A program made the position numbers and the translations under genes. A DNA stretch of 14,159 nt from a virus. Lineage: Duplodnaviria; Heunggongvirae; Uroviricota; Caudoviricetes. A model generated the notes under the pieces. That model had not been told where the DNA came from and searched no databases. It saw only the letters and a program-made list of their open reading frames with translations. The stretch lies in IMG/VR virus record IMGVR_UViG_2859821903_000004, positions 1 to 14,159 of that record, one strand, 5' to 3'. Each line of letters opens with the position of its first letter. The first letter of the stretch is position 1. Below are positions 6,635-7,378 of the stretch, one piece after another.

Positions 6635-7378
6635 TTGCCCGCGCCTCTTTGACAGCGACATAGCACCGTTCGGTGATCAGGTAATCCAGGTTTTTACGCT
6701 TCCAGAACCCACCGCTGCCATTGGGACGATCTTCCAGCATCCAGCGACAGTTCTCAGCAACGTATCGCAGATAGGACTCCCATCGCTGCTGGTCAAAACC
6801 GAATTTCTGCCAGAACGTCCGCAGATTTTTTTTCCTGGTATCCGTCAGAATTTTCACTGATGGCATTTCAGGCAGGATTTCGTGATAGCTGTCCAGAACC
6901 CTCTGCCAGTCGATTTTGTTTTTTGCGCGATGACTGACCTGTGGATCTGCGTCAGCAGATCCACCAACATCAGGTTCATTGACTGGTTCAAAAGAGTGAC
7001 TGGTTCTGGGTGCAACTCCTGCACTGGCAACAGGTGCAACTCCTGCGCTACCCGATGCATCTGATGCACAATGTAGCGAATTATTTGCACTATTCCCCGG
7101 TAAATTTTCTGCACCATCCAGATGAAGGAGATAGATATTACTTGTATTACCTTTTTCACCTTTCCGGGTGATTTTTTTACCAGCCCGGACTCACAAAGCG
7201 CCGCAATATGATTAATCACAGAACGCTTGCTAATCTCGCACTGGTCAGCGATATACTGGTAGCTGGGCCAGCACTCGCACTGATCGCTGGCATTATCAGC
7301 CAGCTTAATCAGAACCAGCTTACGCAATGGATTACCCACTTTAATTTCCATTGCTTTTGCCATTAGTTTCATGCTCAT
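6624..7378 (-). pseudogene. Phage replication initiator (lambda O-like position, N-terminal HTH), frameshifted in a homopolymer
   Basis: The N-terminal 80 aa (frame of ORF 6854..7378) are plausible (…LIKLADNASDQCECWPSYQYIADQCEISKRSVINHIAALCESGLVKK). The plausible continuation (RKGEKGNTSNIYLLHLDGAENLPG...FWQKFGFDQQRWESYLRYVAENCRWMLEDRPNGSGGFWKRKNLDYL...) is in the frame of ORF 6624..6866. Both frames are open across the T7 run at 7172-7178, and an 8th T joins them. Length 755 nt is one short of 252 codons. Confidence 0.7.
6942..7046. repeat. Repeat cluster inside the initiator coding region: a 22-bp perfect palindrome plus two pairs of direct repeats (iteron-like)
   Basis: TGGATCTGCGTCAGCAGATCCA (6942-6963) is a perfect palindrome with 9-bp arms. 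TGACTGGTTC occurs at 6980-6989 and 6997-7006 (17-bp period, not a multiple of 3). GGTGCAACTCCTGC occurs at 7009-7022 and 7033-7046 (24-bp period). Confidence 0.5.

Follow-up and report, generated by a model that had tools for sequence, protein, structure and literature searches.

The replication initiator gene of this cryptic, IS-riddled prophage is very probably an ordinary frameshift pseudogene, an O-like initiator gene in which slipped-strand deletion shortened a run of eight As to seven (A8→A7). The window that we analyzed is a stretch of 14,159 nt, and the gene lies on its minus strand at 7378..6624, where 755 nt could be counted in the window sequence (252 × 3 − 1), bearing out the first-pass annotation, which had the gene one nucleotide short of 252 codons. 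Translation from the ATG at 7378 gives MSMKLMAKAMEIKVGNPLRKLVLIKLADNASDQCECWPSYQYIADQCEISKRSVINHIAALCESGLVKK and then enters an A7 run on the coding strand (7178..7172; T7 on the plus strand at 7172-7178) with the 0-frame context GT-A AAA AAA TCA. The HTH N terminus is good up to ...ESGLVKK, and codon 69 ends at 7172. The ORF from the normal start is 174 aa long, with its stop at 6856-6854. One added base reaches the frame ITRKGEKGNTSNIYLL...KEARANDR*, which ends at 6624; this added-base frame reads ITRKGEKGNTSNIYLLHLDG…KEARANDR* to 6624. With one A inserted, the gene encodes a 251-aa protein whose only difference from WP_000062044.1 is G34C. In ribosomal terms restoration of the frame is a −1 shift, equivalent to one additional A in the mRNA. 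The parts of the gene are as follows.

7172..7378, minus strand: in-frame N-terminal part, codons 1-69, with the HTH_36 domain at aa 17-67 (from the translation and Pfam/PHROG matches).
7172..7178, minus strand: A7 homopolymer, site of the 1-nt deletion and the sole indel in comparison with loci 99.8% identical, every one of them A8.
6624..7171, minus strand: displaced C-terminal part, which in the intact gene is codons 70-251 with the stop and which no longer lies in the frame set by the start.
6854..7171, minus strand: out-of-frame tail, 105 codons plus stop (104 codons beyond codon 70), with no family match.
7279, minus strand: G34C substitution, T on the coding strand where relatives have G in the alignment; it travels with the A7 allele in the lineage.
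6826..6833, minus strand (T8 on the plus strand): second A8 run, …AGG AAA AAA AAT…, in frame and unchanged in the window and three aligned relatives.

The identity of the gene was assessed by family searches and by its neighborhood. Pfam HTH_36 matched aa 17-67 of both the intact protein (E = 4.9e-13) and the 174-aa window product (E = 1.6e-11), and two PHROG families annotated as replication initiation O-like matched the intact protein (8540, E = 2e-67; 345, E = 1e-51, covering aa 2-251). PHROG 8540 matched aa 1-71, and in the intact protein PHROG 24933/345 span aa 140-251. The Pfam search listed no Phage_rep_O match, only HTH_36 and a sub-threshold DnaD_N, and the name "O-like" derives from the PHROG annotation. 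The gene order, running from a cI-like gene through a Cro-like gene, ydaT and the initiator to a DnaB-type helicase, is the early-right-operon placement expected for O-like initiators, which puts them behind cro/cII-like genes and just ahead of a gene for a helicase or helicase loader; the region upstream (7469..8586) is a lambdoid/Rac-type immunity and early region, and the stop region of the initiator overlaps the helicase start at 6634. Judged by position and family, the O-like initiator label that the first reading gave to an HTH protein seems reasonable, with HTH_36 and PHROG 8540/345 behind it, and the protein is of the HTH_36 type. In O-like initiators, the C-terminal domain has the partner- and helicase-recruiting function. 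No full translatable ORF joins the N- and C-terminal domains here, the frame being broken at A7, and the gene is a pseudogene, a non-functional member of the O-like/HTH_36 initiator family. The neighbors are listed below; the first three are from the gene table of a locus identical to the window (L004) and family searches.

8179-8586, plus strand: cI-like HTH_3 repressor.
8102-7875, minus strand: P22_Cro-like protein.
7891-7469, minus strand: YdaT.
5231..6634, minus strand: DnaB-type replicative helicase, inactivated by TGG→TGA (W397*) at 5446-5444.

In phage lambda, the origin iterons bound by the initiator lie inside the O gene. The linker region of the window gene (6941-7049) contains two direct repeats of 17 nt each, GGTGCAACTCCTGC(A/G)CT, at 24-nt spacing, two copies of the 10-nt repeat TGACTGGTTC set 17 nt apart and a palindrome of 10 nt that has a 4-nt spacer. 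These linker repeats could be putative origin iterons within the initiator gene, as in lambda O, and they also encode the repeated peptide SAGVAP.

We compared the gene with its relatives at three depths. The closest are WP_000062044.1 genes ("helix-turn-helix domain-containing protein," 251 aa) from the Rac-like prophages carried by EIEC-type E. coli such as CFSAN029787 and FDAARGOS_943, which are 99.6 to 99.8% identical to the window over 821 nt and have the same neighbors, with cI-like, Cro-like and YdaT genes upstream and an overlapping DnaB-type helicase gene downstream. Nine complete EIEC-type E. coli genomes matched the 821-nt query at this level, every match spanning 822 nt and annotated as intact. 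The three that were aligned (L001 to L003) have A8 where the window has A7, and their 251-aa CDS is annotated as intact WP_000062044.1; the eighth A was thus seen directly in three of the nine genomes, and the other six are known as one base longer and annotated intact. These genes combine A8 with Gly34, whereas the window gene combines A7 with Cys34 and its frame is broken. The single indel in the alignment with the three E. coli loci (99.6 to 99.8% identical) falls in the homopolymer, in agreement with the earlier proposals that the frameshift lies in the T7/A7 run and that a one-base correction at 7172-7178 joins the N- and C-terminal frames. An exact scan for A8 in IMG/VR found it in five further contigs; the A7 count given below comes from a separate exact scan. 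The intact protein occurs on 392 contigs and the frameshift product on a handful.

At the second depth, the replication genes SfV orf39 (NP_599071.1) and mEp460 gp43 are about 88% identical in DNA to the window gene over the N-terminal HTH half and share its Lys-Lys site in the recognition-helix/wing region, but the C-terminal half of their proteins is different (272 aa), and there is no helicase gene downstream. At that site they read GTA AAA AAA GTC, with seven As and then a G, in frame. This allele is the commoner one: in a pattern scan permitting 0 to 2 extra bases, all matches listed were of the SfV type (119 or more contigs in IMG/VR and 83 from metagenomes, together at least 202). At the third depth, a scan of genome contigs returned only distant relatives (Marinomonas, Marinobacter and other genera), which served as divergent comparators. 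In 44 divergent homologues (65 to 78% identity in the aligned N-terminal region), the A run is 3 to 7 nt long, the Lys-Lys pair is often AAA AAG or is replaced entirely, and every gene is a single uninterrupted ORF of 193 to 324 codons. When the shifted frame was followed in the same 44 genes, it closed after a median of 16 codons. The homologue comparison proposed in the first-pass annotation asked whether eight Ts are the rule: they are among near-identical relatives (three aligned loci and five IMG/VR contigs, with the window one base short), but not beyond them, since the SfV type has A7 plus G in frame and the distant genes have 3 to 7 As. Eight Ts uniformly in homologues, with this locus one base off, is the pattern that the same annotation had named as refuting a regulated frameshift, and the data show that pattern. 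Outside one near-clonal Shigella lineage, no homologue requiring a shift was found among the 44 divergent loci and the A8 and SfV-type contigs. On these comparisons, the frame is continuous everywhere except in the lineage of the window, with neither the run length nor the two-frame arrangement conserved.

These observations bear directly on programmed recoding. The earlier suggestion of a regulated two-product arrangement would have −1 ribosomal frameshifting or transcriptional slippage at A_AAA_AAA produce a useful 174-aa HTH protein together with the 251-aa initiator; it found no support in stimulators or in conservation, and we regard it as exceedingly improbable. The run does form a perfect X_XXY_YYZ heptamer in the 0 frame (GT-A AAA AAA-TCA), both frames are long and open, and the 91-nt context folds better than shuffled sequences (z = −2.9). 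The formally slippery A_AAA_AAA, this fold and the length of the out-of-frame tail (codon-permutation p = 0.045) are the points that count against a pseudogene. However, the fold is accounted for by a hairpin, UCCGGGCUGGU-A6-AUCACCCGGA, with the run sitting in its loop. A stimulatory stem is expected 5 to 9 nt downstream of a slippery run, and the run-in-loop geometry is unlike a frameshift stimulator. The 82 nt downstream of the run fold no better than shuffles (z = −1.15), and no SD-like GGAG, AGGA or GAGG was present in the 20 nt upstream of it. No correctly placed stimulator was found, the helicase partner is itself truncated, and the arrangement is limited to one near-clonal lineage, other homologues being single ORFs with runs that vary from 3 to 8 As and an alternative frame that is not conserved. 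E. coli dnaX and the window gene both have a lysine-codon heptamer in the 0 frame, but dnaX has A_AAA_AAG with an SD-like element upstream of it and a hairpin downstream, whereas the last base of the window heptamer is A rather than G, with no SD-like element, no correctly spaced stem and no conservation. In E. coli, A_AAA_AAA is far less shift-prone than A_AAA_AAG (PMC5009743). Programmed slippage sites typically have at least 9 A/T, and selection against slippage-prone runs is evident at roughly 9 nt in many bacteria (PMC1088944); the run of 7 nt is below that threshold, and its length class is not conserved. Programmed −1 frameshifting was rejected after heptamer context, SD-like motif, RNA structure, and conservation of site and frame across the 44 divergent loci had been checked. 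That the 105-codon tail is a functional overlapping ORF was likewise rejected: the product has no family match beyond the HTH, its matches ending at about aa 71-90, the permutation p is 0.045, and homologues do not keep the frame open. That the out-of-frame tail is long and open is unremarkable.

A different explanation is that the strain is truly A8 and that the assembly consensus under-called the homopolymer. The window is 100% identical over its 14,159 nt to CP026839.1 (GCA_002950115.1, a 4.27-Mb chromosome), which has the same exact 174-aa product, and within the same 14 kb this assembly has two further 1-nt homopolymer contractions relative to near-identical sequences: C5→C4 in ipaH at 484-487, and G6→G5 at 5178-5182, the G5 being absent from the closest independent assembly (L005). 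However, A7 is found in independent data. A Logan contig from ERR5984612, seen in five samples, also encodes the exact 174-aa product; IMG/VR UViG_2526164619 (L019), the only A7 match in the exact A7 scan of IMG/VR, has a 174-aa product with one tail residue changed; and in S. flexneri K-315 the same product was called with a later start codon, as protein EIQ24331.1, which falls in the same 90% protein cluster. G34C is present in all these A7 copies (the ERR5984612 contig, L019 and K-315), and A7 co-segregates with it and with helicase lesions that follow the lineages, a phylogenetic signal not expected from random error. We therefore consider an error at this run very unlikely. Pure assembly error was mostly rejected, exact-sequence look-ups having returned the A7 product from independent assemblies. 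Some homopolymer under-calling in CP026839.1 is possible, but A7 is not explained by it; the A7 allele appears real, carried with G34C by independent assemblies of one Shigella lineage.

The two other contractions can be described separately. On the plus strand at 1-1763, ipaH is split at 484-487 into a 187-aa LRR fragment and an NEL fragment, as judged against the intact ipaHa of EIEC strain VL46. An identical 187-aa fragment occurs on 13 contigs, among them several complete genomes of the same accession series (CP0268xx), where it sits at different chromosomal loci. The contraction may be a genuine allele that is widespread, or else a homopolymer under-call affecting the whole project. The G5 at 5178-5182 (minus strand) lies in a 53-aa ORF after the helicase, whose start overlaps the helicase stop at 5233-5229. 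It is unique to this assembly, with G6 in both L005 and L019, and an assembly error or a strain-specific frameshift is possible there.

A7 also occurs on a Gly34 background, in a Logan contig (L094, SRR364092) that shares 97.5% identity and differs in its immunity region. L094 shows A8→A7 in the initiator and A6→A5 in ydaT (at its positions 1956 and 2466), and its helicase gene has the 11-bp deletion also present in L016, an A8 relative. Its A7 is either a recurrent contraction at the run or a read error in that data set, the latter being suggested by the A6→A5 change in the same contig.

The occurrence of A7 on two sequence backgrounds hints at recurrent length change and so bears on a further reading, in which the allele is leaky or reversible: transcriptional insertion of an A, or A7→A8 reversion, would restore some initiator and act as an accidental replication on/off switch. 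In E. coli, transcription makes insertions in A/T runs at a rate that climbs exponentially as the run gets longer (PMC5574713), and slippage-mediated rescue of frameshift alleles is on record (PMC1088944), but Traverse and Ochman saw no case of a reading frame being put right by a transcription error (PMC5574713). Rescue would also be pointless here, the helicase being truncated and the prophage disrupted by IS elements; independent helicase lesions in two A7 sub-lineages fit no purifying selection, and the L094 contig, with its second contraction, may contain read errors. We give this reading very little credence. That the A7/A8 run is an accidental length switch, or the gene a leaky "pseudo-pseudogene" from which a little initiator is still made by a cryptic prophage, is a very doubtful proposition. 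Some full-length protein could come from polymerase or ribosome slippage, and the gene is not necessarily completely null, but nothing suggests that any trace product is selected or used, because the helicase partner is also broken.

The condition of the helicase gene and of the prophage around it fits the pseudogene explanation. W397* costs the helicase the last 71 of its 467 residues and is common to the window and L005. In L019 the TGG codon is intact, and a different lesion, a 1-bp deletion at the equivalent of window position 6155, truncates the protein at 164 aa; the two are independent inactivations of the same gene. The simplest order is that A7 and G34C came first and the two independent helicase knock-outs after. 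Such independent knock-outs match the prediction from relaxed selection on a dead replication module. The prophage family is decaying across these hosts, since even the A8 relatives show damage: L003 and L016 also have helicase lesions, and RecE and DUF977 pseudogenes and an IS2 insertion are found among them. In the window, at least five IS-derived gene sets within 14 kb (IS3-family orfA/orfB, IS1 insA/insB fragments and IS600-like) break up the prophage between its Rha-like, immunity and late regions, at the following positions.

2354-3567: IS-derived gene set.
9326-10023: IS-derived gene set.
11103-12277: IS-derived gene set.
12300-12557: IS-derived gene set.
13323-14159: IS-derived gene set.

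The neighboring integrase of the source genome has been cut short to 131 aa. Among complete E. coli genomes, the nearest belong to EIEC-type strains with ipaH/osp plasmids. The prophage is Rac-like and the genome Shigella-type; we call the host so on account of its ipaH gene, its complement of IS elements, its closeness to EIEC genomes and the S. flexneri K-315 protein in the same 90% cluster.

A sequence of events consistent with these data can be proposed for the slipped-strand pseudogene. The initiator gene of the ancestral Rac-like/lambdoid prophage would have read GTA AAA AAA ATC (A8) at codons 67-70. Because the second A8 run is intact in all aligned copies, where only one change lies close by, a C/T substitution at 6837 in L002, the ancestral gene probably had two hypermutable A8 tracts. 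A/T runs are hypermutable through replication slippage (PMC1088944), and we infer slipped-strand mispairing at the first tract as the mutational mechanism: slippage on the homopolymer would have dropped one A. The normal start would then yield the HTH part of 69 residues and, after it, 105 residues of unrelated sequence, and the C-terminal domain would no longer be produced. The A7 allele would have reached fixation in a single Shigella lineage, whose prophage IS insertions had already disabled, and the neighboring helicase would then, or independently, have been lost to different lesions in different sub-lineages. For the initiator itself we infer loss of function and a lack of selection. The site and kind of the lesion, its absence in relatives, its presence in independent assemblies and the further lesions are direct observations. 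The same kind of event, a one-base change in an A/T run of a coding region in a decaying genome, characterizes known homopolymer frameshift pseudogenes (PMC1088944, PMC5009743, PMC5574713). In contrast to the slippage-rescued pseudogenes described in the same work (PMC1088944, PMC5009743, PMC5574713), there is no sign here of rescue or of selection for it, and the run is only 7 nt long, shorter than the roughly 9 nt from which slippage is efficient in many bacteria.

The importance of this pseudogene is mainly for annotation: the gene-caller ORFs of 174 aa and 80 aa should be merged and flagged as a single frameshifted pseudogene of an O-like initiator. The locus also illustrates that a simple mutation can create a perfect slippery heptamer between two long open frames, and relatives should therefore be compared before programmed recoding is proposed. 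The gene is also a further case of gene decay driven by homopolymers, here in the cryptic, IS-riddled prophages that Shigella carries.
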